Source: a virus. From it: 39,123 nucleotides of DNA. Under the pieces are notes generated by a model, which had not been told where the DNA came from, made no database searches, and saw only the letters and a list, made by a program, of their open reading frames with translations. The stretch is from the IMG/VR virus record IMGVR_UViG_3300034069_001319, positions 1-39,123 of that record. One strand, given 5' to 3'. Below are positions 1 through 39,123 of this stretch, in pieces (the stretch's first letter is position 1; the number at the start of each line of letters is the position of its first letter). The position numbers and the translations under genes were made by a program.

Positions 1-141
1 AAGGCTGGTACCGTTTAAAAGAGATGCCGGCCAAATGGTTGATAAGGCAATACTTACAGTTTGTCCGGCCCAAGTTTGCATAAAACGACTTGGAATATTT
101 GCGGTTAGATAGCATAAATTCCCATTCGCAGGCGCTGATGA
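1..141. repeat. Terminal overlap copy 1 (identical to 38983..39123); circular closure of the contig
   Basis: Compared base by base: nt 1-141 (aaggctggtaccgtttaaaagag...ggcgctgatga) equal nt 38983-39123 exactly. The overlap runs in frame through a minus-strand ORF. Confidence 0.95.
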
Positions 142-405
142 TGTTGTCGCATTCAAATAATACGAACCTGTGAGTGTGCCTGCTACTTGCGAAATAACCC
201 AGGAGCCAGAACTAACCTTAGCTACATAGCCATCAAGGGTGCGCTGGACACCTGCATTAGTAACTGTGTAGGAGGTCGCGCCCTGATTGAAGTTCATACC
301 AGGATTTATCAACCCATTGGGCGGCAGACTGCCACCCCCTGAGCTACCGCTATAGGCGCGCAAAAGCGCGTCATTTTGAAAATTCAACGTATTTGCGCGT
401 GCCAT
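1..405 (-). CDS. N-terminal part of a wrap-around type-B tail-fibre/receptor-binding paralog. It continues in 38260..39123 and is about 376 aa on the circle.
   Basis: My translation from ATG at 405 gives MARANTLNFQNDALLRAYSGSSGGGSLPPNGLINPGMNFNQGATSYT... with no stop down to nt 1. It is in frame with ORF 38260..39063 through the 141-bp overlap. A GGGGA Shine-Dalgarno-like sequence lies about 8 nt upstream. Confidence 0.8.
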   Translation of the reverse strand, partial: MARANTLNFQNDALLRAYSGSSGGGSLPPNGLINPGMNFNQGATSYTVTNAGVQRTLDGYVAKVSSGSWVISQVAGTLTGSYYLNATTSSAPANGNLCYLTANIPSRFMQTWAGQTVSIALSTIWPASLLNGTSL

Positions 406-420
406 ATTTATTCCCCAATT

Positions 421-948
421 TTAAGTAACATTAAAAGTACCCCAACCGGAAAAAGCCATCCAAGCGGTTGAGCTAATGCCGACAAGATTTATGGAATCGC
501 CTGCTGATTGACTGACAGCATTACCAGCGGCGGCACTGACTTGTGTGCCAACCTGAATGGTGACATTTGAGGGTGCAACAATTGCGTAACCGCCGACAGT
601 TCCGCCAATTTGTATAATTGCGCCAAGTGTGGGTGTGGGAAGCGTGACCGTACTGGTGTTTGTCACCACATACCCGGAACCGCTAACGGCTGTGGTATTG
701 GCGCTGACTGTAGTCCAGGGCATGGCCATAGCTGTGGCTGCAATGTTTAGAGCACCTGAAGCATTGGTTAACTGTATGCCCGCCCCCGCGGTCAAGGTGA
801 CAGCCGTGGGCGCCGCCCCGCTGCCCGTCCCATAAGGGATTTGGTTGGCGCCAAGTGTTAAGCCTGTGGCGTTGGTTGCACTGGTTGCCAATAAAAGTTG
901 GTTTGCCGTTTGGTTAAACGTTTGACCACTCGGGTTAGTTTTTGCCAT
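421..948 (-). CDS. Small fibre-like protein carrying the type-A C-terminal tip domain (175 aa)
   Basis: Gly/Thr/Ala-rich beta-type sequence. The C-terminus (TLPTPTLGAIIQIGG...GDSINLVG...WGTFNVT) aligns with the C-termini of the 2111..2683 and 2709..4316 products. An AAGGAA RBS precedes the ATG. Confidence 0.7.
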   Translation of the reverse strand: MAKTNPSGQTFNQTANQLLLATSATNATGLTLGANQIPYGTGSGAAPTAVTLTAGAGIQLTNASGALNIAATAMAMPWTTVSANTTAVSGSGYVVTNTSTVTLPTPTLGAIIQIGGTVGGYAIVAPSNVTIQVGTQVSAAAGNAVSQSAGDSINLVGISSTAWMAFSGWGTFNVT

Positions 949-957
949 ATTCGTTCC

Positions 958-2061
958 TTAAATAACTGCGCTAAGGGTTAAATGGGCCATAAAGCCCCCG
1001 TTTGCGGCGGATATAGCCCCGCCAGAGGCATTTATCAAATTACAAGATTTTTGAGAAATGTTAGTAATCGTGCCTGAGTTAGCACTTAAATCAGTGCCGC
1101 TGGCATTAGACACGCGCCCACTTGCCCCATTAACCGAAATGCAAGCGACTTGAGGCGTGCTAAACATTTGTTCAAATTCATAAGTGCCGTAGTAATAACC
1201 GTTAGGCAACGCGCCGCCTATAAGTCCTGCTGCATAAGCGCTTGGAAATAGGACTGCCCCCACATTAGTAGTAGTCCCGGGACGCACCGAGTAGGCATAG
1301 GTTTTGCGGTAATAGAATTGGCAGCCATAAAGCTGATACCAAAAAGGCAAGCGCACAAATGCCGTTGGATTAGGGCTTATCTCTAGTTGTGATTGTGAAA
1401 AGCTAAACACATCATTTTGGCCAGGCGTAGCGCTTAGAGGCGTCCATGAGATTTCAAATGATAATTGCGTTGTGTTGGCAGGCGTTAAGCTTGAGATAGC
1501 GGTAATCAATTGTGCGTTGAGACTTGTAGTTGCCGTGGGTGTGAACGTTTTTGTGATAATAGCGGTTTGACCGGTGAAAGGGGTCGTTGTGTTGACGTTA
1601 TTGATATCAGTGGTGCCCGTACCTGCATAAACCGTTAAGGTCACGCCATTCATGCTTGAGAAGTTGCTACCAATGAAACAGCGCAGTTGCGCACTTAAGG
1701 TTTGGCTGTAAGAACCACGACAGTCCCACATAGTAATAGTTTGGCCAACTTTGATCAAACCTGTGCCGCTCGTGCGTTGTATGCTGAGATAAAAAGAATT
1801 GGCAATTGTGCCCACGGTTTGACTCACGGTCACATTGCATTGCGTGTAGATGTACCACTGGTCCAGTGTGTAGCTGCCAACAGGTGCGCTTGTCGTTCCG
1901 GCAAGTGTGTAAGGGCCTACCCGCTGGTCAATGGCTTTTGATCCATTGGTGAGTAAACTATGCCCATAGAGCCTACCTGGAACCATTTGCACGGTGTCCG
2001 AGACCGTTGAATCCCCAAGGCTTGCGGGTAATTTTTCATTGGTGGCGCAGGTAATGGTCAT
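958..2061 (-). CDS. Type-B tail-fibre/receptor-binding paralog (367 aa)
   Basis: Shares the N-proximal motif (LLTNGSKAIDQR), the central motif LYGCQFYYRKTYAYSVRPGT and the C-terminal HLTLSAVI with the 36910..38070 and wrap-around products. It lies in the tail-fibre cluster. Confidence 0.7.
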   Translation of the reverse strand: MTITCATNEKLPASLGDSTVSDTVQMVPGRLYGHSLLTNGSKAIDQRVGPYTLAGTTSAPVGSYTLDQWYIYTQCNVTVSQTVGTIANSFYLSIQRTSGTGLIKVGQTITMWDCRGSYSQTLSAQLRCFIGSNFSSMNGVTLTVYAGTGTTDINNVNTTTPFTGQTAIITKTFTPTATTSLNAQLITAISSLTPANTTQLSFEISWTPLSATPGQNDVFSFSQSQLEISPNPTAFVRLPFWYQLYGCQFYYRKTYAYSVRPGTTTNVGAVLFPSAYAAGLIGGALPNGYYYGTYEFEQMFSTPQVACISVNGASGRVSNASGTDLSANSGTITNISQKSCNLINASGGAISAANGGFMAHLTLSAVI

Positions 2062-2072
2062 GAATCATCCAT

Positions 2073-2098
2073 GAAAAAAGAGGTGAGTTAGACTCACC
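2073..2098 (-). terminator. Rho-independent terminator inside the tail-fibre cluster
   Basis: Minus-sense RNA reads GGUGAGU-cua-ACUCACC followed by UCUUUUUUC. That is a 7-bp stem (2082-2088 with 2092-2098), a tight 3-nt loop and a U-tract from the plus-strand A6 at 2074-2079. Confidence 0.6.
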
Positions 2099-2110
2099 CC
2101 AAAGCGAACT

Positions 2111-2683
2111 TTAGACAATGTCGAAATTACCGGTTGAGCTTTTGACTGAAAAAGTGTTGGTTCCCACACAATAAATATAGGCTGAATCTGAGGGCAGTTT
2201 ACTGGTTACAGTCCCCCCTGCAGCGGTTGAAGTGTCGCCTAGGAAGATGACTTGACCTGCGGCCGCTTGGATTACAAAAGGTGCACCTAGAGGTCCTGAG
2301 CCAATGATTTCATAGGGGTCGCCTGCAACCGCGTTAGATGGGAGCGTAAAAGTAAGCGAGGTTGTCCCGGTGGCAATATACGAGTTTTTTTTGACCATGG
2401 TGGTGTTGGAGCTTGCGGTGTTTGAGGTCATGCCGGGTGTGGGGGGCGTTGGCCCATTAATGAGGGTTTTGCCGGGTGTGGTGCTTGAGTCAACCGTAAT
2501 GCCATTAGCCCCGCCTACAATGGTCCAGGCTGTGGGGGCGCTTGCATTACCACCGGTAACGTTACCACCCAAATATTGACCTTGACCAAGCAAAACGGTG
2601 TCAATTTCTTTGGTGGAGCCTGCGTATGCTGCGCCAAAAGGCGACAAATGTTGGATAAAATTCGAGGCGTTATTTAAGGCCAT
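2111..2683 (-). CDS. Small fibre-like protein carrying the type-A C-terminal tip domain (190 aa)
   Basis: The C-terminus (TLPSNAVAGDPYEIIGSGPLG...VIFLGDTSTAAGG...GNFDIV) aligns with the other two type-A tips. Composition is Gly/Thr-rich. Confidence 0.7.
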   Translation of the reverse strand: MALNNASNFIQHLSPFGAAYAGSTKEIDTVLLGQGQYLGGNVTGGNASAPTAWTIVGGANGITVDSSTTPGKTLINGPTPPTPGMTSNTASSNTTMVKKNSYIATGTTSLTFTLPSNAVAGDPYEIIGSGPLGAPFVIQAAAGQVIFLGDTSTAAGGTVTSKLPSDSAYIYCVGTNTFSVKSSTGNFDIV

Positions 2684-2708: not shown

Positions 2709-4316
2709 TTAAGTTAAATCAATGTTACCCATGGCGGTTCTCGCCACAAAATCAGTTGGAAATGAATTGCTATCTACAGCGGTTACACTTAGGCCTAAGC
2801 AGTCGTTTTGCGTGGTCGAGGTGGCAGCCCCATTAATCCCGCGTGTGGTGTCTGTGCCTAGGAAGTGGATTTGCTGATTTGCATTTTGTGCAACCATCCA
2901 TCCAAGGGGATTATTGTAGCCTACAATCTCTAAAGTGTCCCCTAAAATTGCGTGCGTGGGCAGTGTCATAACGGTGACACCATTCGCATTGTTATAGGTG
3001 GTGTAAATACGCCCTGGTTGCAGTTGTGTATTTTGTGAGACGGGGGTTGTATTGCCTGCGCCATTGTTAATAATTTGCGGATAATGAATTTGCACATTAC
3101 CAGAGGTCAGCGAGTCGCAATCAATTACAGGCGTGATGTAATGGCCGCTTACGCTCGGGGCTGTGGGCGTCAAGAGACCAGGCGTTGTTTCTGATAAATA
3201 CAATTGACCAAGGCCTGTAAATTGCCCGCCCGTGGTGTAACCACTGGTGACCATATAGAAATTGTTGGCATCAACAACTTCCACGCACACGCCTTGTGCG
3301 CTTGCTTGTTCTAGGGTGCCGGCAGCAGTAGCCAGGGCGTACATTTTTGTAGCACTTACAAAGCACAAGGCTTGATCTTGCACAAACCCATGATTGGCTT
3401 GGGTTACAAGCCGTGCCACATTGCTGTGGTCTTGCACAATAATTGCATCTGGATTGATTTTGCCGCGCATGGATTGAATAAATCCAGATGTTGAGCTATC
3501 AGCAATGAGCACGGGTTTATTGATTTGCCCAGGCGTAAGATTAGGGGTCAAGCTCATTTGACCCTTTTGGCCCAAGAAATAGGTGCTGCCCGGTATCAAG
3601 TTGTTAAAGCAGGTGGCGCGTCCAATGCTTGAGACGACAAAGTTATCCGCATCAATAACTTGAGTGACGACGCCCACCGATTCAGCGGTGGCTAAACTTG
3701 TGCTATCGGCCAAGATATAGCCTGTGGCTGTTGGGGTAATGTATTGCTCGACTACAAAACCGTGATTTAATTGTTGTATTTGTGCGTTGATGGCGGCATT
3801 TTCCTGATTTAGGAAAATGTCTTGGGGGAGTACCGCGCGAATGCCTGTACCATCTGGGGTAAATTGCAAAACTTTGGATGCGCCTACATCTTGTATCTCG
3901 GTCGAGCGTACTTGTCGGTTTAATTTTGAAAGCTTTATGGAGCGGGCAAGTGTGAAAGCCACATCCTGGAGGGCCATGGTTTGCCGGTCAAAAGCGTGCT
4001 CGGTTTTGGTGGCTGAATAGGGTCCTTGTTGCAGATAGCGGATGGGTTGTAGGGCTTGGGTTTCGCGATCGATATAAAGCGCCCAACCATCATACAAGCT
4101 TGCGGCTCTAGCGCTTAGCGTAATCTGTGAGGGATTGGTGTTGCCTTGTCCTTGCAGGGTGTAATCAAAGCCCAATTGCAAGATAACTTCTTGCCCTGCA
4201 TTGCGTTCCACAAAAACAGAAACATCCTGGGGCTCAATGAAATTAAATTTACAAGGATAAGGGCCTAGGCCTTGCACAACGTAAATGGCATTAGTGATTT
4301 GTGTTTCAACAGTCAT
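2709..4316 (-). CDS. Tail fibre protein (535 aa) with two internal domain repeats and a type-A tip
   Basis: The N-terminus is a typical fibre anchor (YVVQGLGPYPCKFNFIEPQDVSVFV...DYTL...ITL...IDRETQALQP...FDRQTMALQD). Two tandem HGFV-initiated domains of about 100 aa follow. The C-terminus TLPTHAILGDTLEIVG...GNIDLT is the type-A tip. The gene follows the internal core genes directly. Confidence 0.8.
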   Translation of the reverse strand: MTVETQITNAIYVVQGLGPYPCKFNFIEPQDVSVFVERNAGQEVILQLGFDYTLQGQGNTNPSQITLSARAASLYDGWALYIDRETQALQPIRYLQQGPYSATKTEHAFDRQTMALQDVAFTLARSIKLSKLNRQVRSTEIQDVGASKVLQFTPDGTGIRAVLPQDIFLNQENAAINAQIQQLNHGFVVEQYITPTATGYILADSTSLATAESVGVVTQVIDADNFVVSSIGRATCFNNLIPGSTYFLGQKGQMSLTPNLTPGQINKPVLIADSSTSGFIQSMRGKINPDAIIVQDHSNVARLVTQANHGFVQDQALCFVSATKMYALATAAGTLEQASAQGVCVEVVDANNFYMVTSGYTTGGQFTGLGQLYLSETTPGLLTPTAPSVSGHYITPVIDCDSLTSGNVQIHYPQIINNGAGNTTPVSQNTQLQPGRIYTTYNNANGVTVMTLPTHAILGDTLEIVGYNNPLGWMVAQNANQQIHFLGTDTTRGINGAATSTTQNDCLGLSVTAVDSNSFPTDFVARTAMGNIDLT

Positions 4317-24026: not shown

Positions 24027-24057
24027 TGTTATTACTGTTTCCTTTTCATTGCTACTC

Positions 24058-24132: not shown

Positions 24133-24142
24133 ATGACGAATG

Positions 24143-25061: not shown

Positions 25062-25215
25062 GGGGTCCATCCAACAATTGATTTGGCTTGAGCTTAGCGC
25101 AGAATGCGAATTGATACCAGTTCCACACATTAAGTGATCACAAATGCCCTTTTTTCACAAAAACATGCAAGCACTGCAATGATTGTTCTTGCATTTATAT
25201 CCGATAAACGCAATA

Positions 25216-27395: not shown

Positions 27396-27468
27396 GACGC
27401 CCTCCTTGGCCTTATGAGGCAGCCTGCTTGATTGTATGCTGAGATTGCAAATACGGCAAAGCATACGT

Positions 27469-27831: not shown

Positions 27832-27852
27832 AGCTCTTGCTTCCTTAACTTT

Positions 27853-27865
27853 GCTAGTATATGCT
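27853..27865. promoter_or_regulatory. 13-mer GCTAGTATATGCT, the reverse complement of 34075..34087, in a divergent promoter region
   Basis: Exact 13/13 match read off both regions. It contains -10-like hexamers on both strands (TATACT, TAGTAT). A TATAAT on the minus strand is adjacent at 27868-27873. Confidence 0.5.
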
Positions 27866-27901
27866 ACATTATACAAGTAAACGCTACACAAGGAAACAGC
27901 T

Positions 27902-28516: not shown

Positions 28517-28527
28517 CTTATAGCTTT

Positions 28528-28543
28528 CCCCACAACCGTGGGG
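28528..28543. terminator. Hairpin between convergent genes (possible bidirectional terminator, no U-tract)
   Basis: CCCCAC-aacc-GTGGGG, a 6-bp GC-rich stem. Confidence 0.3.
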
Positions 28544-28566
28544 GTGTTCGCCTTAGTGCTAGAGTG

Positions 28567-30208: not shown

Positions 30209-30209
30209 G

Positions 30210-30428
30210 TTATTTAACTTCCTTGTTAGTCCTGCAGCTTCTTACTAGTTGCTTTATTTGTTCGACAGCCTCCTCTACAGAAAGCGTAGGGTCGTCATAG
30301 ATTTTGTCGAACCAAGCTTTTGGTACCAAAGTATATTGACTTGGGTCATAATCGATACTTTGTATGGATTCGTGTACAACCGTCACATTGCAGTTATCGT
30401 ATTCATCATCATGTTGTTTCGACATCAT
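30210..30428 (-). CDS. Hypothetical acidic protein (72 aa)
   Basis: ATG at 30428 with a GAAGGAG RBS (MMSKQHDDEYDN...). Confidence 0.5.
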   Translation of the reverse strand: MMSKQHDDEYDNCNVTVVHESIQSIDYDPSQYTLVPKAWFDKIYDDPTLSVEEAVEQIKQLVRSCRTNKEVK

Positions 30429-30491
30429 TACTCCTTCACTTGCAGCCCTGGTTCGCAAATCTTCTGCAGGCCGCAGATTGTAAATCCTAGC

Positions 30492-30510
30492 TAGATAATC
30501 AACTTATCTA
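30492..30510. promoter_or_regulatory. Palindrome TAGATAA-tcaac-TTATCTA upstream of the replication operon
   Basis: 7-bp inverted repeat with a 5-nt spacer, read from the sequence. Confidence 0.35.
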
Positions 30511-30544
30511 ATCCATTTCCTAAATTTCAGACAAAATAAACCCT

Positions 30545-30566
30545 GCCATAGGCTTAAGCCATAGGC
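30545..30566. repeat. Direct repeat GCCATAGGC x2 (13-nt period) around the palindrome GGCTTAAGCC
   Basis: GCCATAGGC lies at 30545-30553 and at 30558-30566. Confidence 0.6.
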
Positions 30567-30594
30567 ATAGATTTTAATTAGTTTTGTAACTTGG

Positions 30595-30625
30595 TTGACA
30601 CGTGATGTGGTTGTGGCTGTAGAAT
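30595..30625 (+). promoter_or_regulatory. Sigma70-like promoter: TTGACA, 19-nt spacer, TAGAAT
   Basis: A perfect -35 at 30595-30600 and TAGAAT at 30620-30625. The spacer is long. Transcription would run antisense to the minus-strand early genes. Confidence 0.4.
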
Positions 30626-30832
30626 GTAGCCATCGAGGGCAGCAGACGTTATTCATGATTTTTCCTATGGGTTATGGATGACTGAGCCATGTAAAGCGCT
30701 AACTTTGCATGACTCGCTGACCTCAAACCATAACAGAATGCTTGAACTCGATCTAGCTAAAATGAAAAAAAACTGAAAAAAGAAAAAACTAACATCTTAA
30801 TAACTGCTCATAACAGACCCCGATTATTGCAA

Positions 30833-30988
30833 TCATTTTTTATCTAATGCTCGCAATACTTTTTCAAATAATATTAATATGTACTTAACAAAGTAAAAGG
30901 CACAAGCAACAGGCCATATAATCTTAAGCGACAATGTAAAGAGCTCAAAGAAAGACGCATTGTTTATCCATATATTAAATGCTTGCAT
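30833..30988 (-). CDS. Small hydrophobic ORF (51 aa)
   Basis: My translation is MQAFNIWINNASFFELFTLSLKIIWPVACAFYFVKYILILFEKVLRALDKK. It starts 3 nt after the upstream stop. Confidence 0.35.
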   Translation of the reverse strand: MQAFNIWINNASFFELFTLSLKIIWPVACAFYFVKYILILFEKVLRALDKK

Positions 30989-30991
30989 TGC

Positions 30992-31234
30992 TTACTCCTG
31001 GCTATTTGTTTTTGTGTTAGGTCCTAAAATATAATAAGGGTCAAAATAGGGAGGTATTTTATCTATAGTGACAAATTGACCTAAACCTAAAATACCTTCA
31101 TGCAATGAAAAAGATACGTCCATTCGATACAAGCCATCTTTTAGATGCAATGTATTATTTGCATGTTTTATGACTTTTCTCAATTGAGCTTTAATCTCAT
31201 CACCATTAATCATAAAACAGGGTCTATTCTGCAT
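30992..31234 (-). CDS. Hypothetical protein (80 aa)
   Basis: ORF only; low GC. Confidence 0.45.
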   Translation of the reverse strand: MQNRPCFMINGDEIKAQLRKVIKHANNTLHLKDGLYRMDVSFSLHEGILGLGQFVTIDKIPPYFDPYYILGPNTKTNSQE

Positions 31235-31293
31235 TAAAAGTCTCCAACAGAAATTTTTGCACTAGTTATTGTCAGCATTCATTTTCCAACATC

Positions 31294-31662
31294 CTACAAA
31301 AAATCGAATAAACCAGGCCCACCAACTAAAAACCAATTTTCAGCATAATAAATAAAGTGTTGTACATCCCAACCACCCTGGGATGCTAAAGCATGAACAT
31401 GAGCGTATATTGTGTAATCTAAAAATTTTTTCATGGCCGATTCATTACGGCAAAAACAAATATCTGCTCGAAATGGTTGCTTATCAATACGCGCAAATGT
31501 AATGACATTATTATCATTAATGTTTTGACGGGCAAAGATAATACAATCATCATTCTTCGCTTGCGCCGGCAGATATACTTTGTCAATGTGCGGTTGCAAT
31601 ATATAGGTATGGTTAGGCTGTGCTATGATAATTGAGTCCATACCTTTGTCAATGTTAGTCAT
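31294..31662 (-). CDS. Hypothetical protein (122 aa)
   Basis: ORF only; low GC. Confidence 0.45.
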   Translation of the reverse strand: MTNIDKGMDSIIIAQPNHTYILQPHIDKVYLPAQAKNDDCIIFARQNINDNNVITFARIDKQPFRADICFCRNESAMKKFLDYTIYAHVHALASQGGWDVQHFIYYAENWFLVGGPGLFDFL

Positions 31663-31942
31663 CCTTCAATTTTTCATCCTTAGCCGCAAAATAAGCAAGC
31701 GCCATTAAGTTGTATAACAATTGCTGCACGCCTGCTAGTTTGTCAATTTCCTGCGTGCTGGATTCGTTTTTGTTGTCAGAAACAGTCATCAGAACGGCTT
31801 GCTGTAATGCAATAAAATCGTAATGTTTAACTATGAATTTATCAAATGCGTGACTTGCATTCGCACGCTCTGTTACTTCATCAAGCAGCTTTTTACCACC
31901 TGGCAACAATTCATCAAGTATGTCTTTCGCTATGTCTTTCAT
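31655..31942 (-). CDS. Hypothetical protein (95 aa)
   Basis: ORF only. Confidence 0.45.
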   Translation of the reverse strand: MKDIAKDILDELLPGGKKLLDEVTERANASHAFDKFIVKHYDFIALQQAVLMTVSDNKNESSTQEIDKLAGVQQLLYNLMALAYFAAKDEKLKDD

Positions 31943-31947
31943 GTGTA

Positions 31948-32739
31948 TTATTCCTGGCTATTGTCGTTTACAAACGCATTCCATAAATGCGTATAAATCA
32001 TCTGATGTGCAGCTTTTACTTGTGCTTCCCAAACAGCGCACGCTATTGGGTCTTTTTGGTCTAGTGTTTTGTAGGCTGTGAAAAACTGAAGCAATTGTGC
32101 GTTTAACTCATTAAGCCTTGCGTTTTGTCGATCATGTAATTGTTCTTTAACACGTGCTTCTTTTTTTGCTAATAATGGATTTTCACCTGCCTTAACCAAG
32201 GCGCGCCAAGCGTCCCGATTGACTCGTGCTTGACTTAAGCTAACCTCTGGATATACGCCCAAAGATGCGCACCGCACACGACCTGCATGCTTATATTTGA
32301 TGCGCCAATACTTACTACCTCGGGGGTGAATTTCCATGAACAAACCACCGCCATCGAAAAGTTTGTAAATACGTGCGCGGATAGGGGCTTCAGCTATAAC
32401 TTCTTCCCTTAAGACATTGATTCGCTTGTTTTGCGTTTGTTGTTTAGTCACTGGATTAGGCTGTGAAGCTATCTTTGGTTTTTCTGGTCTTGTGCTATAA
32501 GGCGATTTGACGCGCTCAACAGGTTTTAAAGTGCCATCTTGCAATAAACGTTCTAAATCGGCACGAGCCCAGGCAACATTGCGCGCTCCAAGATAGACAG
32601 GCTTTGGATAAATGCCTGTTTTGATACCCGCATACCAAGTTGTGCGCCCAACCGGGAACACGGCTTTTATAGGCGGGTTATTATTTTTATCACCTAAGAT
32701 TTCACGTATTTTGAAAAATGGTTTATCTGGTAGATACAT
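31948..32739 (-). CDS. AlpA-type HTH fused to an integrase arm-binding N-domain (DUF4102-like); no recombinase catalytic domain (263 aa)
   Basis: FFKIREILG...VGRTTWYAGIKTGIYPKPVYLGARNVAWARADLERLL fits the AlpA/HTH_17 pattern. KLFDGGGLFMEIHPRGSKYWRIKYKHAGRVRCASLGVYPEVSLSQARVNRDAWRALVKAGENP fits the P4-type integrase N-terminal arm-binding pattern. The protein ends about 65 aa later. Confidence 0.7.
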   Translation of the reverse strand: MYLPDKPFFKIREILGDKNNNPPIKAVFPVGRTTWYAGIKTGIYPKPVYLGARNVAWARADLERLLQDGTLKPVERVKSPYSTRPEKPKIASQPNPVTKQQTQNKRINVLREEVIAEAPIRARIYKLFDGGGLFMEIHPRGSKYWRIKYKHAGRVRCASLGVYPEVSLSQARVNRDAWRALVKAGENPLLAKKEARVKEQLHDRQNARLNELNAQLLQFFTAYKTLDQKDPIACAVWEAQVKAAHQMIYTHLWNAFVNDNSQE

Positions 32740-32741
32740 AG

Positions 32742-32939
32742 CTATAAGCTCTTTATTTCTGTTGTAAATGTTGCTAATTCTTTAATAACTTCATCGACCT
32801 GAGCATATGCCTTAATATATGCACCTTGCATCAGATGCTCACGAACTTCTTTAAATTGTTGCACAATTGGTTCGATGAATTCTATAAAATAACGATTCAA
32901 CTGCGCTTGGCTGCATTTTGCAGGCGGGGCTTCATGCAT
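32742..32939 (-). CDS. Hypothetical protein (65 aa)
   Basis: ORF only. Confidence 0.4.
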   Translation of the reverse strand: MHEAPPAKCSQAQLNRYFIEFIEPIVQQFKEVREHLMQGAYIKAYAQVDEVIKELATFTTEIKSL

Positions 32940-33438
32940 ATTTCACCATGGCTTGATAATAGAATTCATCCTTATCTTCATCTAGGCTCACGCAAATCCC
33001 TCCCTGAGGTACCCAGTTATCACGTATAGCCTCTTTTACGCTTAACTCAAATCGCTTGTAATCTAATGAGGTGATTGTTTTATAATCTATGACTTTTTTA
33101 CTTGCTTGCGCCTGACTTACATTGTGACTTACCGGTTTTGTCGGCATATTGCTTTGCAGGCCGTATGTTTCAATTGAGTCTTTCGTGTGTGTTTTGTTAT
33201 TAACAAATTCAACAAAAGCACTTGTAAACTCGTGAGAGCAAACATTTCGTTGTAAAACAGCTTTTTGACATAAGTTTACGCATATATAGCCATAATGCTT
33301 AAATTGCAAAGTTAATTCATGCAAACCTGGTCCGATGTTGTGTTTTCTAATGAGGTTTTCTATAAGGTCAAACAGTGGGGCTGCTTTTTCCATTGCGGCG
33401 GCATCATTATCTATGTCAAGTTTGATTAATTCTTTCAT
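32932..33438 (-). CDS. Hypothetical protein (168 aa) with a DUF1737-like C-terminus
   Basis: The C-terminus DYKRFELSVKEAIRDNWVPQGGICVSLDEDKDEFYYQAMVKY resembles the DUF1737 pattern (..GW.P.GG......y.QAM). Confidence 0.45.
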   Translation of the reverse strand: MKELIKLDIDNDAAAMEKAAPLFDLIENLIRKHNIGPGLHELTLQFKHYGYICVNLCQKAVLQRNVCSHEFTSAFVEFVNNKTHTKDSIETYGLQSNMPTKPVSHNVSQAQASKKVIDYKTITSLDYKRFELSVKEAIRDNWVPQGGICVSLDEDKDEFYYQAMVKYA

Positions 33439-33462
33439 TCATCGCATCCTTCATTTGTTTCA

Positions 33463-33657
33463 TTAGTCTTTTAAAAAACGGTCTAAGCAATCAACTAATT
33501 TGCGCCTTTGAAAAACACCCTGGCCACGTGGCCACAACACTTCAATATCCCAATACTTGCGCGGTATCATGCAGTGGGCTTGAGACACCACAACTTCAAG
33601 CTCATCGCGAGTCTCTTTGCGCAGATAATAAATGGTTCTAGAATTTCTAATTCCCAT
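33463..33657 (-). CDS. Hypothetical protein (64 aa)
   Basis: ATG at 33657 (MGIRNSRTIYYLRK...), with an 11-nt overlap with the upstream gene. Confidence 0.4.
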   Translation of the reverse strand: MGIRNSRTIYYLRKETRDELEVVVSQAHCMIPRKYWDIEVLWPRGQGVFQRRKLVDCLDRFLKD

Positions 33658-33868
33658 CGGTTTTGAGCTCTTGACTTGCAGCTTGTAGGGCATTGAGCTT
33701 CTCAAGCACATATTGCCGATAGCCAAAATTAAAATCTTTAAGCAAGTCAGCGATTAATATTAGCTTTTCATCGAGTGTTTTATGTGAAAGTTTACGTTTA
33801 TAGTTATTAGCAATCAAAAAATCATCTTTGATTCTATCTAGCAGAAAATCTTCAACCTTTTTTGCCAT
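33647..33868 (-). CDS. Hypothetical protein (73 aa)
   Basis: ORF only. Confidence 0.4.
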   Translation of the reverse strand: MAKKVEDFLLDRIKDDFLIANNYKRKLSHKTLDEKLILIADLLKDFNFGYRQYVLEKLNALQAASQELKTDGN

Positions 33869-34046
33869 TTTTAGCCCCTTTTGTAAGCTTTAACCCTTCA
33901 AGGATGAAAGTGCGTATGATATGCGCCCTGGAATAACGTAATCTTTTAGCCAATTTGCAGACCTCGGCATAATCACGCACATGCACTTCAAGGCCTAATT
34001 TTTGCCTCGGTAAGTCTATTGTTAATAATTCATTGTCAAAATTCAT
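33852..34046 (-). CDS. Ribbon-helix-helix (CopG/Arc-like) regulator candidate; first gene of the leftward early operon
   Basis: MNFDNELLTIDLPRQKLGLEVHVRDYAEVCKLAKRLRYSRAHIIRTFILEGL shows a beta strand followed by two helices with the S-R-x-x-I-I-R signature. An alternative ATG lies at 34061. Confidence 0.5.
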   Translation of the reverse strand: MNFDNELLTIDLPRQKLGLEVHVRDYAEVCKLAKRLRYSRAHIIRTFILEGLKLTKGAKNGKKG

Positions 34047-34055
34047 GGTGTTCTC

Positions 34056-34084
34056 TTGCATTATAAAAACCACCAGCATATACT
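34056..34084 (+). promoter_or_regulatory. Sigma70-like promoter for the rightward recombination operon: TTGCAT, 17 nt, TATACT
   Basis: The -35 lies at 34056-34061 and the -10 at 34079-34084. The -10 sits inside the conserved 13-mer at 34075-34087. An AAGGGA RBS and the ATG at 34114 follow. Confidence 0.45.
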
Positions 34085-34113
34085 AGCGACCTATAGAATA
34101 CAAGGGATCAGCT

Positions 34114-34347
34114 ATGTACACCATCAACCTACAAGAAGTCAGGCATTTGCACAAATTAAGCTTAGAGGCTTTAAACCAATTAGGCTTAATCCACCAAGAC
34201 CACGCTTTGAGCCCAGGGCTTTTGGAGCGTCACCTGCAAGCGGCTAAACACGCGCTTAATGCCTTGCTTGCAGACTTGGGCGTTTTTATTGCCATACTTA
34301 ATGATGATGAAAAGATGAGCCTACCAAAGGATGCAGAAGATGCATGA
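34114..34347 (+). CDS. Hypothetical protein (77 aa), first gene of the rightward operon
   Basis: ORF with an AAGGGA RBS. Confidence 0.5.
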   Translation: MYTINLQEVRHLHKLSLEALNQLGLIHQDHALSPGLLERHLQAAKHALNALLADLGVFIAILNDDEKMSLPKDAEDA

Positions 34348-34591
34348 TGAAAGCGTGTTGGTTGATGCTTTGAGGCGCGCGGAAACCATCGGTAACAGAC
34401 TTTTGCAACAAGATGCTATGCAAGGTGCAATGAAAACCTATCAGGACGAACTGGCAGCACTCTCAACGCTTTTGTGCATGAAAAGTGCAATGGGTGATCC
34501 AAAACGCTTTCCTGAGATGATTCACGACATTGTTATAAATGCTTTTCTCCTTGGTATTAACGCCGCAAACAAAAAAGGATTAGAATCATGA
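34331..34591 (+). CDS. Hypothetical protein (86 aa)
   Basis: ORF only. An alternative ATG lies at 34340. Confidence 0.45.
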   Translation: MQKMHDESVLVDALRRAETIGNRLLQQDAMQGAMKTYQDELAALSTLLCMKSAMGDPKRFPEMIHDIVINAFLLGINAANKKGLES

Positions 34592-35178
34592 ACGACATCA
34601 TATCTTTACTGCGTCAAATGCAACTTGCAATAAAATGCCCGAAAAAAAAGAAAAATGAGTATGCCGGATACATGTATCGCACTTGCGATGACATTATGGA
34701 AGCGGCCAATAAAGCCATCCCTGAAGCTTGCTCAGTCGGCGTCAGTGATGAGGTGGTCCTCATTGGTGAGCGCTATTATGTCAAAGCAACAGCATCTTTT
34801 CTGCATGCCGGACAAAGCATTGACCGCACAGGATACGCCCGCGAACCTCTCGTTAAAAAGGGTCAAGATGAGCCGCAAATCACCGGAACCGCAAGTTCTT
34901 ATGCCCGTAAGTTAGCTTTAAGCGGGCTTTTGATGCTTGATGATGGGGTAGATGATGACGCAACCAATATGCACATTGAGCCTATGACCCCACCGGGTAA
35001 GCCCATTGAGGGCCTAAGCGTTATTGAAAATCTGCGCAATGAAATAAAAATACGCCAAAATATCAATCCTAGTTACAAAAGGGCGGTTGAGGTGGTACTC
35101 ACTAAAAAAGATAAAAAGTTGAACGACTTAGATGAAGAAGGGTTAGAGTGGCTACTGAAATTAAGTCTTAAGGATTGA
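34588..35178 (+). CDS. erf: ERF-family single-strand annealing recombinase
   Basis: YMYRTCDDIMEAANKAI...VSDEVVLIGERYYVKATASF...QITGTASSYARKLALSGLLMLDDGVDDD closely parallels P22 Erf as I recall it (YKYRSCEDILEGVKPLL, SDEIVLIGDRYYVKATATI, QVTGATSSYARKY.LNGLFGIDD). Confidence 0.85.
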   Translation: MNDIISLLRQMQLAIKCPKKKKNEYAGYMYRTCDDIMEAANKAIPEACSVGVSDEVVLIGERYYVKATASFLHAGQSIDRTGYAREPLVKKGQDEPQITGTASSYARKLALSGLLMLDDGVDDDATNMHIEPMTPPGKPIEGLSVIENLRNEIKIRQNINPSYKRAVEVVLTKKDKKLNDLDEEGLEWLLKLSLKD

Positions 35179-35180
35179 GA

Positions 35181-35654
35181 ATGACCGTGCTTACTGAAGG
35201 GCTTGCCGATTTTACCATTGAATGGATTGAGCAGCATGTATCACGTGCGGGTAATCTGAGCATCAAGCTGAAACTAAAGCTCGTAAAAGATGACCAGACG
35301 ACAATCGCCTACGAGTATTTGTCTCATGGTTCACGCAAACGCCTACAAAGCTTTTGTGACTCTCTACAAGTGCCTTTGCCTGAAGGCCGGCTTGTAGATT
35401 GCGACAATCGCGCTTTGCTGCAACTAAAAGGGGCCACGGGAGTTGCGCGTATTCGCGTTGAGCAAAGTGATGGTTACCCTGAGCGTAATCGAGTATCTCT
35501 ATGGCTCAAACCTGAAAGCAAATCGGACAAGCATCAGCAAAGCCTAGACAACTTACAAAATCAAGTCGATTTTATAAAGAATAATCCGGTGCATAACAAG
35601 CACATAGAGGCAAATTCTGATATAGCTATTAATTTGGATGATGTGCCCTTTTAA
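35181..35654 (+). CDS. DUF669-like putative ssDNA-binding protein with an SSB-type C-terminal DDVPF tail
   Basis: ATG at 35181 with an AAGGA RBS. It ends ...INLDDVPF, resembling the bacterial SSB acidic tip DDDIPF. It follows erf directly. Confidence 0.5.
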   Translation: MTVLTEGLADFTIEWIEQHVSRAGNLSIKLKLKLVKDDQTTIAYEYLSHGSRKRLQSFCDSLQVPLPEGRLVDCDNRALLQLKGATGVARIRVEQSDGYPERNRVSLWLKPESKSDKHQQSLDNLQNQVDFIKNNPVHNKHIEANSDIAINLDDVPF

Positions 35655-35665
35655 GGACAAGTTGC

Positions 35666-35836
35666 ATGAATGATAAAATAAGACAAGCCTTGGATGCATT
35701 AGATGCTTTGTGCGTTGAGCTTGAAGCAGAAGAGGTCTGGTGGGCGGCAGCTAAGCTTGGTATTATTGAGGGAATTTTGCGGCAAGAATTGGCTGATGGT
35801 GAATCATGGATAGCGACAGCTACAGAGAAACTGTAG
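35666..35836 (+). CDS. Small ORF (56 aa)
   Basis: My translation is MNDKIRQALDALDALCVELEAEEVWWAAAKLGIIEGILRQELADGESWIATATEKL. Confidence 0.35.
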   Translation: MNDKIRQALDALDALCVELEAEEVWWAAAKLGIIEGILRQELADGESWIATATEKL

Positions 35837-35976
35837 AAATACTTATTTGTCTTTTTGTGTGCCTTATCCTCATCCTCGTCATGACAGCTTTCATGTTTTT
35901 ACATGGGACTGACAAGAAGCAATTATATAAACATCTAAAATTTGAAAGCCTTGAGAATGTGCAACACTCAAGTTAG
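35806..35976 (+). CDS. Small single-pass membrane ORF (56 aa)
   Basis: My translation is MDSDSYRETVEILICLFVCLILILVMTAFMFLHGTDKKQLYKHLKFESLENVQHSS. Confidence 0.35.
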   Translation: MDSDSYRETVEILICLFVCLILILVMTAFMFLHGTDKKQLYKHLKFESLENVQHSS

Positions 35977-36028
35977 CCTTATACCATCTTCCATGATAAC
36001 GTTACATCAATAAAAAAAGGAAAACAGC

Positions 36029-36373
36029 ATGCAAAAAAATGGCTTCAGTGATGATGAGCTTGCAAAAGTTTGGGAGTCTTTTAAAGCGTTTGCAAGCCTC
36101 GAAGAGTTTTTAGAATTCCATGAGTACGACAACGGTTGCGAGCCGCAAGAACTTGCTGAGAACCGTGCTTGGCTTTTGCAAATGACAAGTTTAGAGCGCT
36201 GGTTCTACCATGCTTTAAGTACCCTATCAAGCAATTGCTCTAATTTAGAGTACGAGACCCATCTGCACAAAAGCTGGACGTTTCGTCAGCTCTATCATTT
36301 AGCTAATGGTGCACACTTGGCAGATTTCATGGACGGCTGGGGCTTTGCTGAATGGAAAAAAAACGGTTTATAA
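36029..36373 (+). CDS. Hypothetical protein (114 aa)
   Basis: ORF with an AAAGGAAAA RBS region. Confidence 0.5.
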   Translation: MQKNGFSDDELAKVWESFKAFASLEEFLEFHEYDNGCEPQELAENRAWLLQMTSLERWFYHALSTLSSNCSNLEYETHLHKSWTFRQLYHLANGAHLADFMDGWGFAEWKKNGL

Positions 36374-36910
36374 TTTAGCCAGTCGATGAAGCCAACCGCC
36401 GTAGAACACACTTTGTGTTTTATCGCGCTCTACAATATGCGCATAGTATTTGGCGTTTAACACTTTGTAGGTACTCAGCAAATCAGTAGCTGCCCGTGCA
36501 TTGGTGGCCGCTATCGTCAAAGGCCCAAGCAGGCCATCTAAGCGCAATTTGAGGCGTGGATTAATTTGCATCAAAGCTTGTTGCAGCAGTATTACGGCTT
36601 CCATTGCGCCTAGATTTACAGCTTGGCAAAAAAGTAGGGTGCCAATGCGTTGCGCGGTTATTTTGTCGAGTTTCAGAGGCGTCCAAAAAACAGCCTTCAG
36701 TAAGTCATCGCGTTCAAGCTGTGTCATGGCTTGTAAATCATGGGCAGATATCTTGCCGTCGTGGTCAAAATCCCCGCTTAGAGCTGTTTGTGTTTGTAAA
36801 AAGCGCAGGGAAATCCCTGCACGGGTTACCCCGCCTTTATCAAACTTTTGCGTACTCCAACCACCTTCCAGCTCGTCAAGCACTTTTAGTGCGGTGTTGA
36901 AGTCAGCCAT
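36368..36910 (-). CDS. Endolysin: GH108 muramidase-type N-domain plus PG_binding_3-type C-domain
   Basis: FNTALKVLDELEGGWSTQKFDKGGVTRAGIS carries the EGG catalytic motif. ...LQQAL...LRLDGLLGPLTIAATN...FYGGWLHR follows. The ATG at 36910 overlaps the fibre gene stop as TGATG. Confidence 0.8.
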   Translation of the reverse strand: MADFNTALKVLDELEGGWSTQKFDKGGVTRAGISLRFLQTQTALSGDFDHDGKISAHDLQAMTQLERDDLLKAVFWTPLKLDKITAQRIGTLLFCQAVNLGAMEAVILLQQALMQINPRLKLRLDGLLGPLTIAATNARAATDLLSTYKVLNAKYYAHIVERDKTQSVFYGGWLHRLAKL

Positions 36911-38070
36911 CAAACAGGCGTCGCATCGAGTGTTAAATGAACTTGATGATTATTGTTGGTGTTCATGATCGTCAAGCCTTGTGAGTTAACGCTGACAATG
37001 CTTGTTTGACTTGTTGGGTTCGCATTGGTCAGTACATTGACCGTAGGGGCAAAATACATGGGCAGCCCGAAGCCAAAGTAATTAGTGGAGGGCACCACAA
37101 TTTGTGTGCTTGAACCGTCACTTGGGGCGTAGTTGTAAAAAGAAAAGGCATTGAGATAGATGTATCCGGGGCTTGAGGGCGTGGCGGTTGCTGGGTCGAC
37201 ATTAAGGTCTAAAGTCTTGCGATAAAATATCAAGCAAGCTCTATATTCGTCAAAATAATCGGGATAGGCATAGGTTTGCGGGCTCGTGCTCAATTGGCGC
37301 TTAGCAACGACAAAGCCATCCAGAGCGCCTGCTTGTCCGCTAGGTGTCCAAGTAAAACCAACATAAACTTGCGTGTAAGCGGCAGCCAAAACCTGCGGGA
37401 TTGTAAGAGTGAAATTTTGAAAACTGGTAGTTAGATTTAAGGTCTCAGTTGCCAGCACACTAGAGCTTGCAAAGCCTGTACCTAAATAGGACACAGCCGC
37501 CCCTTGGCTTGAAGTGCCACCAATGATTTGTGCGGTCAGCGTACCTGTAAAATCAGCAAGCTTTTGCGCTGCAAAGTTAAACACCAGCTCATTATCAATA
37601 AGTGAAACGGTAATTTCTGGCACCACTGTTTGACCGTAGTTAACTGGAGTGACGACACTGGAATTTGGTGTGCGCTGTATCTGGATGCCAGTAGCTGGAA
37701 TGTTGTCAGGCCCCATAACTTGCGAGACGCTAACAGGAGTCCCATTGGTCTGGATGGCCCAACAATCATCGACATATCGCGTAATGGCATTGGGTAGCGT
37801 GAACACAGCCGCTCCAGATGCGCCGCGTTGCGCAAACAGGCCACTGCCGTTAATCAAATAATTGCGATTGGTGCTTGCAGTACCATTGCCACTTGAACCT
37901 GCTTGCAGCGCTTGAAATTCAGCGACAAAAGCCGGGTCAAAACTGATGACTGGGGTGGTGGTGGGGCTTGTGACTGTAATTTGGTTTACGGTGCCTGTCA
38001 CTTGAGTGACCGTGCCCTCCCCTCCCCCGCCGGTCGTTGTGCCATCAACGGTAAATGCTGATGTTGTCAT
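36910..38070 (-). CDS. Type-B tail-fibre/receptor-binding paralog (386 aa)
   Basis: NYLINGSGLFAQRGASG, YRACLIFYRKTLDLNVDPAT and the C-terminal HQVHLTLDATPV align with the other two type-B proteins. Confidence 0.7.
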   Translation of the reverse strand: MTTSAFTVDGTTTGGGGEGTVTQVTGTVNQITVTSPTTTPVISFDPAFVAEFQALQAGSSGNGTASTNRNYLINGSGLFAQRGASGAAVFTLPNAITRYVDDCWAIQTNGTPVSVSQVMGPDNIPATGIQIQRTPNSSVVTPVNYGQTVVPEITVSLIDNELVFNFAAQKLADFTGTLTAQIIGGTSSQGAAVSYLGTGFASSSVLATETLNLTTSFQNFTLTIPQVLAAAYTQVYVGFTWTPSGQAGALDGFVVAKRQLSTSPQTYAYPDYFDEYRACLIFYRKTLDLNVDPATATPSSPGYIYLNAFSFYNYAPSDGSSTQIVVPSTNYFGFGLPMYFAPTVNVLTNANPTSQTSIVSVNSQGLTIMNTNNNHQVHLTLDATPV

Positions 38071-38249
38071 TTGGCGCTCCCTTTATTTGTGCTACTTAAA
38101 ATGGTTTGTTGCGCCTGATTGCCTAGAGCCAGCCAATGCAAATAGGCGCAATAGGCCGGATTGCGCTTGTCTTGCGGTATATATTGGCCTGTTTCCAGAT
38201 TCTGTATGCAAAATATGTGGTTCTGCTCATCAACTAATTGGGTATACAT
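38067..38249 (-). CDS. Small protein (60 aa) between two type-B fibre genes
   Basis: Its stop overlaps the downstream ATG as ATGA. No function is assigned. Confidence 0.45.
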   Translation of the reverse strand: MYTQLVDEQNHIFCIQNLETGQYIPQDKRNPAYCAYLHWLALGNQAQQTILSSTNKGSAK

Positions 38250-38259
38250 ATTTTATCCT

Positions 38260-39123
38260 TTAAGACAGTAATGTTGAATCTGCAATCCAGTGACCCATCA
38301 CATTAGGAATGTTGCCTACAAGTGTGCCTGATGTGTTGTTCTGCACATTGAACCCGCTGGGGGTGATGTTTGCGGCATACAAATTATTGCTGGTTCCGGA
38401 ATCTGTGACGGTTGACGTATTACCAGAATTATAAAAACTCGCGCTATTTAGCATGGAGTTTAAAACCGAATACATGCTGACACGCGGTGTATAAAGCTTA
38501 GGTACGGAAAACTGCACATTGCCATAGCTTTGGCCTGCTTGAATGGGGTTGCCTGAGTAACCCACAGCTGGATAGATTTGGTAGCCTGCGCTGTTATTGG
38601 TGGCAGGTGCCACACCCAGTGCATAAGTTTTTTCGATTAGCATCTGGCAGCGTTCATAATCCAGGCGATAGTCGAGTGGGGTGTAGACGGGCGCACTTGT
38701 GGGTCCGCAATACAAATTATTCAACTTCCAATTTTCAGCAGCTGAAACAGCGGCCACATATTGCATAACGAAAAAAATGGTGATTTGCGTGGTGGCGGCT
38801 GGAAGCGTGCCTAAACTTACTTGATAAGTTTGCACACCCGTAGCACTTGTGGGCACGCTAACGGTGGGTTGTAGTGCGCTTGCGCCATAGGTCGTATTGG
38901 TAAGGCTGCCCGCCCGATTACCACTGGTAATCAAGAGATTTGAATCGGTCGTACCCGTACCATAGTAGCCACCTACCGTGAAAAGGCTGGTACCGTTTAA
39001 AAGAGATGCCGGCCAAATGGTTGATAAGGCAATACTTACAGTTTGTCCGGCCCAAGTTTGCATAAAACGACTTGGAATATTTGCGGTTAGATAGCATAAA
39101 TTCCCATTCGCAGGCGCTGATGA
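38260..39123 (-). CDS. C-terminal part of the wrap-around type-B tail-fibre paralog (5' end at window nt 405)
   Basis: The reading frame stays open to the window end. DYERCQMLIEKTYALGVAPAT and the C-terminal GHWIADSTLLS align with the paralogs. Confidence 0.8.
   Translation of the reverse strand, partial: SSAPANGNLCYLTANIPSRFMQTWAGQTVSIALSTIWPASLLNGTSLFTVGGYYGTGTTDSNLLITSGNRAGSLTNTTYGASALQPTVSVPTSATGVQTYQVSLGTLPAATTQITIFFVMQYVAAVSAAENWKLNNLYCGPTSAPVYTPLDYRLDYERCQMLIEKTYALGVAPATNNSAGYQIYPAVGYSGNPIQAGQSYGNVQFSVPKLYTPRVSMYSVLNSMLNSASFYNSGNTSTVTDSGTSNNLYAANITPSGFNVQNNTSGTLVGNIPNVMGHWIADSTLLS
38983..39123. repeat. Terminal overlap copy 2 (identical to 1..141)
   Basis: Same as copy 1. The unique genome length is 38,982 bp. 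Confidence 0.95.

Follow-up and report, generated by a model that had tools for sequence, protein, structure and literature searches.

How does a podovirus with a genome of some 39 kb come to encode six fibre-class proteins in one array, and do these proteins act together? The question is raised by the IMG/VR virus record IMGVR_UViG_3300034069_001319, which was analysed over its whole length of 39,123 nucleotides (nt) and is called the window here; it is a circularly assembled podovirus genome in which a long tail fibre, two mini-fibres (A2 and A1) and three proteins of roughly 370 amino acids (aa; B1, B2 and B3) are encoded on the minus strand. A preliminary description of this DNA had seen in the array either a branched or multi-specificity adsorption apparatus or a reservoir of alternative receptor-binding proteins (RBPs), and in its A-B pairs adaptor-plus-RBP units. 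Sequence comparison leads us to think, with some reserve, that the module probably specifies a non-covalently assembled host-recognition apparatus with several receptor-binding proteins; that all of the anchor-less receptor-binding proteins are mounted together may well be so, though we hesitate to call it probable.

The window begins and ends with an exact 141-bp direct repeat (1-141 are identical to 38983-39123), which indicates a circular contig assembled with an overlap; because the window end duplicates its first 141 bp, the genome circle measures 38,982 bp. The order along the minus strand is fibre, A2, terminator-like hairpin, B1, A1, B2, a 60-aa open reading frame (ORF), B3 and GH108 endolysin, so the coordinates and the transcription order first given for the array were all correct, and the alternation of B paralogs with type-A tip proteins is borne out:

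2709..4316, minus strand: long fibre, 535 aa, with an anchor (aa 1-126), middle repeats and a C-terminal A knob (aa ~414-535).
2111..2683, minus strand: A2 mini-fibre, 190 aa, starting MALNNASNF, with one shaft motif and an A knob (aa ~86-190).
2100..2080 (element 2070..2100), minus strand: terminator-like hairpin between A2 and B1, a 9-bp stem with 5 G-C pairs, followed by T6.
958..2061, minus strand: B1, 367 aa, an N-terminal segment of ~18 aa and then the B domain (aa 19-365).
421..948, minus strand: A1 mini-fibre, 175 aa; its N-terminal peptide MAKTNPSGQTFNQ is degenerate, and a shaft motif and a divergent A knob (aa ~77-175) follow.
1..405, minus strand: 5′ part of B2, codons 1-135, with the N-terminal peptide MARANTLNF.
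38260..39123, minus strand: 3′ part of B2; 38983-39123 copies 1-141, and the gene is 405..1 joined to 38982..38260.
38067..38249, minus strand: 60-aa ORF containing IPQDKRNPAYCAYLHW, a small conserved accessory gene after a stand-alone B gene.
36910..38070, minus strand: B3, 386 aa, an N-terminal segment of ~56 aa with a shaft motif (GTVTQVTGTVNQITV...TTPVISFD) and then the B domain (aa 57-377).
36368..36913, minus strand: endolysin with GH108 and PG_binding_3, the downstream boundary of the array and outside the array itself.

The gene that wraps around the ends of the record is real: with one 141-bp copy removed B2 has 375 aa and a stop codon (422 aa if the ends are joined with both copies), the joined protein fits the family model end to end, and its counterpart in L009 is uninterrupted within the contig (L-numbered loci are viral contigs from IMG/VR). 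The count of six fibre-class genes also stands, while their share, put at about 17 percent of the genome, is somewhat smaller, 6,102 nt or 15.7% (16.4% for the whole span). The last 4 nt of B3 are also the first 4 of the endolysin gene. A Shine-Dalgarno-like sequence precedes every gene of the array except B1, and the composition of the array, including the G+C content at third codon positions (GC3), matches that of the other structural genes. The hairpin may, as read from the sequence, lower the expression of B1-B3 relative to the fibre and A2; it is not kept in L009, in which A2 directly adjoins B1. Between A2 and B1 (2062-2110, minus strand) lies a mini-ORF of 4 codons (ATGGATGATTCATGA), the stop codon of which overlaps the B1 start codon.

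B1, B2 and B3, which had been taken for paralogs because of three shared elements, are true distant paralogs with about 27% identity. BLASTP aligns B1 with B2 at 27% over 307 aa (E 4e-8), B1 with B3 at 28% over 254 aa (E 3e-7) and B2 with B3 at 27% over 258 aa (E 6e-3); an independent hidden Markov model (HMM) of 350 positions, built from 129 family members none of which is from the window or its close relatives, matches all three over positions 9-349 (B1 1e-76, B3 2e-52, B2 3e-43), in B2 over aa 19-372. The three shared motifs are the most conserved columns of the family in an alignment of 60 sequences including all three paralogs: N39, Q46 and D67 are invariant, and N35, R47, W69, C247, K253, P261 and P303 are conserved in at least 90%. 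The resulting signature opens with N-x-L-x-N-G...Q-R, continues with D-R-W, C-x(5)-K and A-P-x-T, and closes with an H-x-T-x-D-A strand. The HMM search of the motif family proposed in the preliminary description thus uncovers a large family that matches all three B genes over their full length, with 1,778 cluster representatives at E≤1e-3; it emerged only from the exhaustive profile search, a single-sequence, word-indexed protein search with B1 having given 3 matches, and tblastn of B1 against GenBank phages no match. There is no Pfam match for B1, B2 or B3 and no Pfam carbohydrate-binding module (CBM) above the gathering threshold; stray matches to CBM_2 and CBM_15 (E 0.06-0.07) occur in Pfam searches among the 60 family members. 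A metagenome scan added one unrelated single-B locus, and no close relatives were found in IMG/VR with the gp16-like protein and the B3 alignment.

Throughout the family the B domain ends its protein: it is followed by at most 20 aa in 150 of the 152 best representatives, and likewise in B1, B2 and B3. What precedes it differs, from 40 aa or fewer (44 of these representatives) to more than 100 aa (84). T7-type anchors stand in front of it in the family members P0072, P0042, P0084 and P0081, the long fibre's own middle repeat type in other proteins, collagen-like G-x-y runs in other phage proteins, and Mtd_N or DUF2793 domains in some long members. For B1 there are matches in the C-terminal parts of PHROG tail-fibre families, and the B-domain family overlaps phrog_4492, phrog_25042 and phrog_27782.

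An AlphaFold2 monomer model of B1, computed on the 60-sequence alignment, has a predicted local distance difference test score (pLDDT) of 90.2 and a predicted template modelling score (pTM) of 0.85; with a 3-sequence alignment the pLDDT was 42. Residues 1-30 are of low confidence, as expected of a segment that folds only on binding. The model predicts a CBM-like β-sandwich as the N-terminal half, followed by a second β-rich half. About half of B1 matches, in the PDB, CBM16, CBM22, CBM61, the Fbs sugar-recognition domain and the meprin MAM domain (E 1e-4 to 2e-6), and further fold matches are CBM-like Stig cyclases and the phage receptor-binding proteins CBA120 TSP4 and Kp7 gp52. Whole B1 finds its fold among predicted viral structures in uncharacterised phage proteins and annotated tail fibres (template modelling score, TM, 0.6-0.73); the named fibres of cultured phages reach TM 0.57-0.63, and Ralstonia phiAp1, Burkholderia BcepSaruman, Xanthomonas OP1h and three separate proteins of Synechococcus S-N03 are among the named matches. 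A homolog of the OP1 fibre, p26 of Xp10 and Xop411, is a virion protein by mass spectrometry, and host-range mutations of OP1 map to the p26 gene (PMC2248197). Because of the fibre fusions, the PHROG matches, the fold matches and the p26 data, the B domain is, as far as sequence and predicted structure tell, a receptor-binding-type distal fibre domain, encoded three times here as a stand-alone protein, with no more than some 18 residues ahead of it in B1 and B2 and some 56 in B3. The proposal that the B proteins are of receptor-binding type is thus upheld by a C-terminal fibre family, PHROG matches, a CBM-like fold and tail-fibre structure matches, and they are quite likely receptor-binding proteins of the virion. 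As a distant relative has the gene order in common with it, the phage probably recognises several host surface sugars.

A virion anchor is present only in the 535-aa fibre and in none of the five other proteins. Its aa 1-126 match PHROG tail and tail-fibre N-termini and, in the PDB, the tailspike N-terminus of Klebsiella phage Dpo31/Dpo36 (E 1e-6). The middle of the fibre consists of two copies of a repeat of ~115 aa (aa 174-287 and 298-415), the profile of which has no match in the PDB or Pfam. The anchor-less five are built of a short N-terminal segment and a distal domain (an A knob of ~105 aa or a B domain of ~340 aa), with a shaft motif in A1, A2 and B3. The C-terminal knobs of A1 and A2 and the C-terminal end of the long fibre are homologous (A2 to fibre, 34% over 114 aa, E 9e-9), and A1 and A2 are paralogs over their full length, A2 of L009 being 31% identical to A1 of the window over 186 aa. 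Their shaft motif, GQ.LIGSTG..P.AATLTAG.GI.ITN (A2 aa ~30-80, A1 aa ~30-70), is similar to the N-terminal region of Pgp3, the plasmid virulence protein of Chlamydia (PDB 4jdm, E 0.006).

The A knob occurs in at least 286 IMG/VR contigs, always C-terminally (a median of 0 residues follow it in 122 genes) and on proteins of 110-1,092 aa. A-knob genes are often in tandem; the largest A-only array seen, in L088 (IMGVR_UViG_3300029908_000096), has five consecutive A-knob genes of 166, 197, 198, 212 and 197 aa. A knob-only profile matches CpaA (6o38) weakly, at E 0.011, with all four glycan-binding repeats in register, and, again weakly, residues 89-126 of CBA120 TSP4-N (E ~0.07); hhalign finds a weak match to residues 100-155 of T4 gp9 (P 0.0055, probability 6.6%). 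Residues 80-178 of TSP4-N are its XD1 domain, the structural homologs of which are T4 gp9, gp10 XD1, CpaA and StcE (PMC8825819), and since CpaA, TSP4-N XD1 and T4 gp9 are structural homologs, the three weak matches converge on one fold. With low confidence, the A knob is taken for an XD1/gp9-type β-sandwich and not for an XD2/XD3 jelly-roll docking domain. A resemblance of the knob to T4 gp10 in BLASTP was not confirmed by hhalign, which gave probabilities of 0.2-0.6% for the middle-repeat and A profiles. As the same knob is the fibre's own distal domain, the A knob may itself be a receptor-binding tip.

Whether the array is a set of working parts or of spare copies can be judged from its relatives. 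L009, a 38.6-kb contig, has gp15 and gp16 homologs only 22-23% identical to those of the window, and the order of its array is identical: fibre with A knob, A, B, A, B, small ORF, B, GH108, each of the two thus having three A knobs and as many B proteins. The fibre, A2, B1 and A1 are 39-49% identical between the two (A2 49%, A1 49%), and B2 and B3 only 24-25%, no closer than the paralogs are to one another; within B3 the first 60 alignment columns are 40-43% identical and the rest 0-33%. L007 carries the same module, ending after the B1-type gene, and in L014, a third lineage, a B gene is followed by a B3-type gene and then GH108. This distant conservation, together with the lack of DNA repeats and a normal composition, speaks against recent duplication and a silent reservoir and argues, at the level of sequence, for an array maintained as six distinct functions. 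Of the two possibilities offered earlier, a working multi-component apparatus is therefore the one favoured by the array kept in L009; the reservoir finds no support.

The 60-aa ORF is part of this pattern. It and its L009 counterpart match the same region of the phrog_20370 profile, a family of unknown function, and belong to small proteins of 54-78 aa (window 38067-38249, minus strand; L009 12730-12966; L096 9104-9268); the window ORF and that of L096 are 52% identical over 23 aa. Six-frame translation of 1.2 Mb contains the signature [IVL]-P-x-[DE]-x-x-N-x-x-[YF]-x-x-[YWF]-[LIQ]-x-W in only 4 places, all of them directly after a stand-alone B gene, in the window, L009, L096 and L097. L096 and L097 carry the same module, which brings the distinct arrays with the small-ORF signature to three. 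Because the order in L096 and the small-ORF homology repeat those of the window, A-mini, B and small ORF form, by these comparisons, a recurring unit, and the 60-aa ORF most likely encodes an assembly helper for the B protein encoded upstream.

How anchor-less proteins might be attached is suggested by a short N-terminal peptide downstream of A-knob genes. In 80 IMG/VR loci (L016-L095), selected solely for the A knob, its consensus is M-A-T-N-N-[AS]-[ILV]-N. The strict motif is the start of 39 of the 77 genes that come directly after an A-knob gene (51%), of 16 of 65 genes two positions downstream (25%), of 17 of 122 A-knob genes themselves (14%) and of 8 of 681 other genes (1.2%); for the immediate downstream position against other genes this is an odds ratio of 86 (p 8e-36), an enrichment of about 40-fold. 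Many A-family proteins from unrelated contigs start with M-A-x-N-N-x-[IL]-N, and a strict pattern fits 22 of 59; in several unrelated podovirus contigs 2-4 adjacent genes with differing C-terminal domains begin with the peptide. Adjacent small fibre-like genes that share it were seen in L016-L095, L003, L005, L012, L013 and L096.

In the window itself the strict motif is found only at the start of A2, and a relaxed form at B2 and at one unrelated gene. The N-termini read MALNNASN (A2), MAKTNPSG (A1), MARANTLN (B2) and MTITCATN (B1); orthologs of A1 begin MALINAID and MSLANAID, and the B1 start aligns from residue 1 with MTINNAVN of the L096 B protein. Those of A1 and B1 look like degenerate versions of the peptide, to judge by these alignments; B2 also carries a degenerate form, and B3 begins with an unrelated shaft-type motif. 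A forecast drawn from the peptide held: the stand-alone B gene of L096 that begins with the strict motif (P0076, MTINNAVNS) is preceded by an A-knob gene, and the genes there encode, in order, a protein of 589 aa with an A knob at its end, an A protein of 193 aa (MTTNNSVNG), B and a 54-aa ORF. The notion of A-B adaptor-plus-RBP units is accordingly retained in part, for the enrichment of the peptide after A-knob genes and the L096 forecast favour it, though only indirectly; an obligate partnership was considered and given up, since a B domain is present in only 4 of the 80 A-knob loci, and L008 and L010 have B without an A knob.

These observations can be assembled into the following scenario. 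Trimers of the fibre would attach to the tail as in T7, and the anchor-less proteins would dock on the fibre or on each other via their N-terminal peptides, of a class M-A-x-N-N-x-x-N that is strict in A2 and degenerate in A1, B1 and B2; B3 would dock through its own shaft-type N-terminus instead. The A knobs, at their free distal faces, would offer the likeliest sockets. In this way several glycan-binding heads would be displayed on the virion, three B types and the A knobs, in a branched or chained arrangement, and these might widen or secure adsorption to the polysaccharide receptors of a Gram-negative host, while the 60-aa ORF would aid the assembly of the B protein preceding it. It is possible, if doubtful, that an undescribed and widespread plug-and-socket principle lies behind this, with the A knob, as an XD1/gp9-like β-sandwich having a free distal face, for socket and the N-terminal peptide of the next-encoded protein for plug. 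Podoviruses could on this view chain or branch receptor-binding heads in any number with no need of a T4gp10-type domain; three knobs would then mount three CBM-like B heads here, and the B domain would have its own helper in the small [IV]-P-x-D-x-x-N-x-x-Y-x-x-Y-L-x-W protein.

Several observations weigh against such an assembly. The 80 A-knob loci are not phylogenetically independent, and the adjacency of the genes could reflect mere membership of fibre-gene arrays instead of contact between knob and peptide. No co-variation of knob and peptide is seen: in the 80 loci a canonical knob is not preferentially followed by a canonical peptide (Fisher p 0.52). A 1:1 ratio of knobs to peptide genes holds in the window, in L009 and in several other loci and fails in L025 and L039. 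A sequence-level search of the fibre and of the A knob for a docking domain of the T4gp10 type (XD2/XD3) found none, and the likeness of the knob to the XD1/gp9/CpaA fold is weak (E 0.01-0.07, probability 6.6%). A conserved N-terminus with a divergent C-terminus is seen clearly only in B3, and B1 has no obvious ribosome-binding site and lies behind the terminator-like hairpin.

Among other explanations, the one that survives best regards the accessory proteins as competing alternative tips, which share a limited number of docking sites, so that heads differ per fibre or virion and the population is a bet-hedging mixture, in place of a single branched complex that bears every head. Four of the five accessory proteins do have one class of N-terminal peptide, adjacent genes with near-identical peptides elsewhere (three in L005) suggest a shared socket, and the hairpin after A2 could set relative amounts; however, the peptides of the window are mutually diverged and the N-terminus of B3 is unrelated to them, so that distinct sites fit better, and three A knobs accompany three B proteins both in the window and in L009. 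We hold this arrangement to be unlikely.

Improbable, in our view, is that the A-type proteins and/or the 60-aa ORF are Tfa/gp38-like fibre chaperones, with only the fibre and the B proteins being structural. Tfa/gp38-type fibre-assembly genes sit just downstream of fibre genes; A2 and A1 (175-190 aa) have a size and a downstream position typical of such genes, and the small ORF always follows a stand-alone B gene. Yet A1 and A2 are built like fibres, with a Pgp3-like shaft motif and the fibre's own knob, the knob is C-terminal even on proteins of up to 1,092 aa, and for A1, A2 and the 60-aa ORF neither Pfam nor PHROGs yields a match to a chaperone family (Tfa, gp38, gp57-like).

It also seems quite improbable that the B proteins decorate capsid or neck as fibres, or are soluble glycan-binding proteins released at lysis. 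They lack an anchor domain, B3 adjoins the endolysin gene with a 4-nt overlap, and a CBM-like fold is not specific to receptor-binding proteins, all of which would suit a role apart from adsorption; on the other hand, the same domain ends T7-type anchored fibres elsewhere and is annotated as, or shown to be, a tail fibre. Finally, a silent cassette reservoir, in which a single paralog is in use while the rest are kept as recombination or switching donors, would explain why three paralogs are clustered on one strand but is highly improbable, as besides the 141-bp overlap the module has no shared DNA segments, no direct or inverted repeats, no invertible segments and no template/variable pairs like those of diversity-generating retroelements (DGRs), the proteins are only ~27% identical, all domains are intact and full-length, every gene except B1 has its own Shine-Dalgarno-like site, composition is normal and each slot is kept in a distant relative.

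The non-covalently assembled apparatus favoured here follows, with its array, the known logic of anchor, docking site and conserved peptide in multi-fibre systems, of which it is a variant and not a new kind; for a genome of 39 kb it has unusually many accessory proteins. Closest are the anchor-branched dual-RBP podophages, E. coli G7C (gp66/gp63.1) and Klebsiella KP32, K11 and KP34 (Latka et al. 2019, PMC6872550). As there, an anchored primary RBP is accompanied by anchor-less downstream secondary RBPs with short conserved N-terminal peptides, and the receptor-binding parts diverge strongly between relatives; unlike there, no XD2/XD3 branching domain is detectable by sequence, the accessory proteins number five and not one, the heads are CBM-like β-sandwiches and small knobs instead of β-helix depolymerases, and the peptide M-A-T-N-N-[AS]-[ILV]-N differs from those described. 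In K1-5/SP6 the secondary RBPs attach by N-terminal peptides of 7 to 11 residues (PMC6872550), which is the mode of attachment proposed here, but the anchored protein is a bare adaptor in those phages, whereas the present one is a complete fibre that has a distal knob itself.

In CBA120 (Ackermannviridae) TSP1-4 form a branched complex in which TSP4-N has the composition AD-XD1-XD2-XD3 (PMC8825819). The proposed model shares with it several RBPs on one anchored protein, and the A knob weakly matches XD1 of TSP4-N; in CBA120, however, XD2 and XD3 dock and XD1 is a spacer, while here the XD1-like domain is terminal and no XD2/XD3 was found, and CBA120 is a myovirus with β-helix tailspikes, unlike the podovirus considered here. 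The Ralstonia podophage GP4 has three types of tail fibre (Zheng et al. 2023, cited in PMC11445570); it is comparable as a podovirus with three or more distinct fibre types, and the closest homologs of the tail tubular protein B of the window include those of Ralstonia phages, but the fibres of GP4 are mounted via a 93-aa immunoglobulin-like (Ig-like) tail-fibre adapter ring. No GP4 fibre is among the top 50 PDB fold matches listed for B1. With p26 of Xanthomonas Xp10/OP1/Xop411 the B proteins share a predicted B-type fold (OP1h Q2PGC3, TM 0.57, E 8e-14); p26, in contrast, is a single gene in a siphovirus, and its host-range changes map to duplications near the N-terminus. The predicted fold of the N-terminal half of B and its N-x-L-x-N-G-x-F strand motif are like those of CBM4/9 ('CenC-like'), CBM16, CBM22 and CBM61; unlike these β-sandwich modules B has a second β-rich half with the conserved C...K...P signature, and the likeness, as modelled, is at the level of the fold only. 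The inversion systems of Mu (Gin) and P1 (Cin) and the DGR system of Mtd differ from this array in that flanking inverted or template/variable repeats are absent here.

The remainder of the genome is that of a podovirus of mixed make-up. Its structural genes are T7-like (tail tubular proteins A and B, portal, major capsid protein, internal virion proteins), the tail tubular protein B being 31-36% identical to counterparts of Pelagibacter and Ralstonia phages, and among the genes of the genome there is no phage RNA polymerase or DNA polymerase; in the stretch 20800-36400 the T7-like virion module is thus seen to be paired with a backbone that is not T7-like. The G+C content drops to 0.37-0.41 across 29-34 kb of the window. 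The non-structural half includes the following:

24058-24132, minus strand: tRNA-Gln (anticodon TTG).
24453-25130, minus strand: 225-aa ORF weakly matching PF13505 outer-membrane β-barrel at 26.5 bits (cutoff 28.7 bits).
25183-26226: P63C-domain protein.
29225-30208: DnaD-like replication initiator.
31948-32739: Arm-DNA-binding/AlpA-like protein.
34588-35178: ERF recombinase.

The 225-aa outer-membrane-like ORF has no relatives in a scan of bacterial genomes; it could, going by the match below the cutoff, be a moron gene, and it gives a hint of a Gram-negative host. A direct repeat of 25 nt (7701-7725 and 11395-11419; 80% identical) lies close to the gp15/gp16 junction and within the tail tubular B gene, and a 30-nt imperfect inverted repeat (73%; 27836-27865 and 34075-34104) flanks the early region; either could be due to chance.

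Receptor-binding proteins set a phage's host range, and modular docking underlies plug-and-play phage engineering. If the reading of the array as one assembled apparatus is true, a podovirus of ~39 kb mounts five accessory heads on one anchored fibre without a T4gp10-type domain, the feature by which the known branched systems are defined, and five would be more than the two of KP32 or K1-5 and more than GP4 with its three fibre types. The 1,778 clusters of a family without a Pfam model would then have a function, and the knob and the peptide would provide an easy new rule by which fibres of uncultured environmental podoviruses could be annotated and possibly re-targeted.

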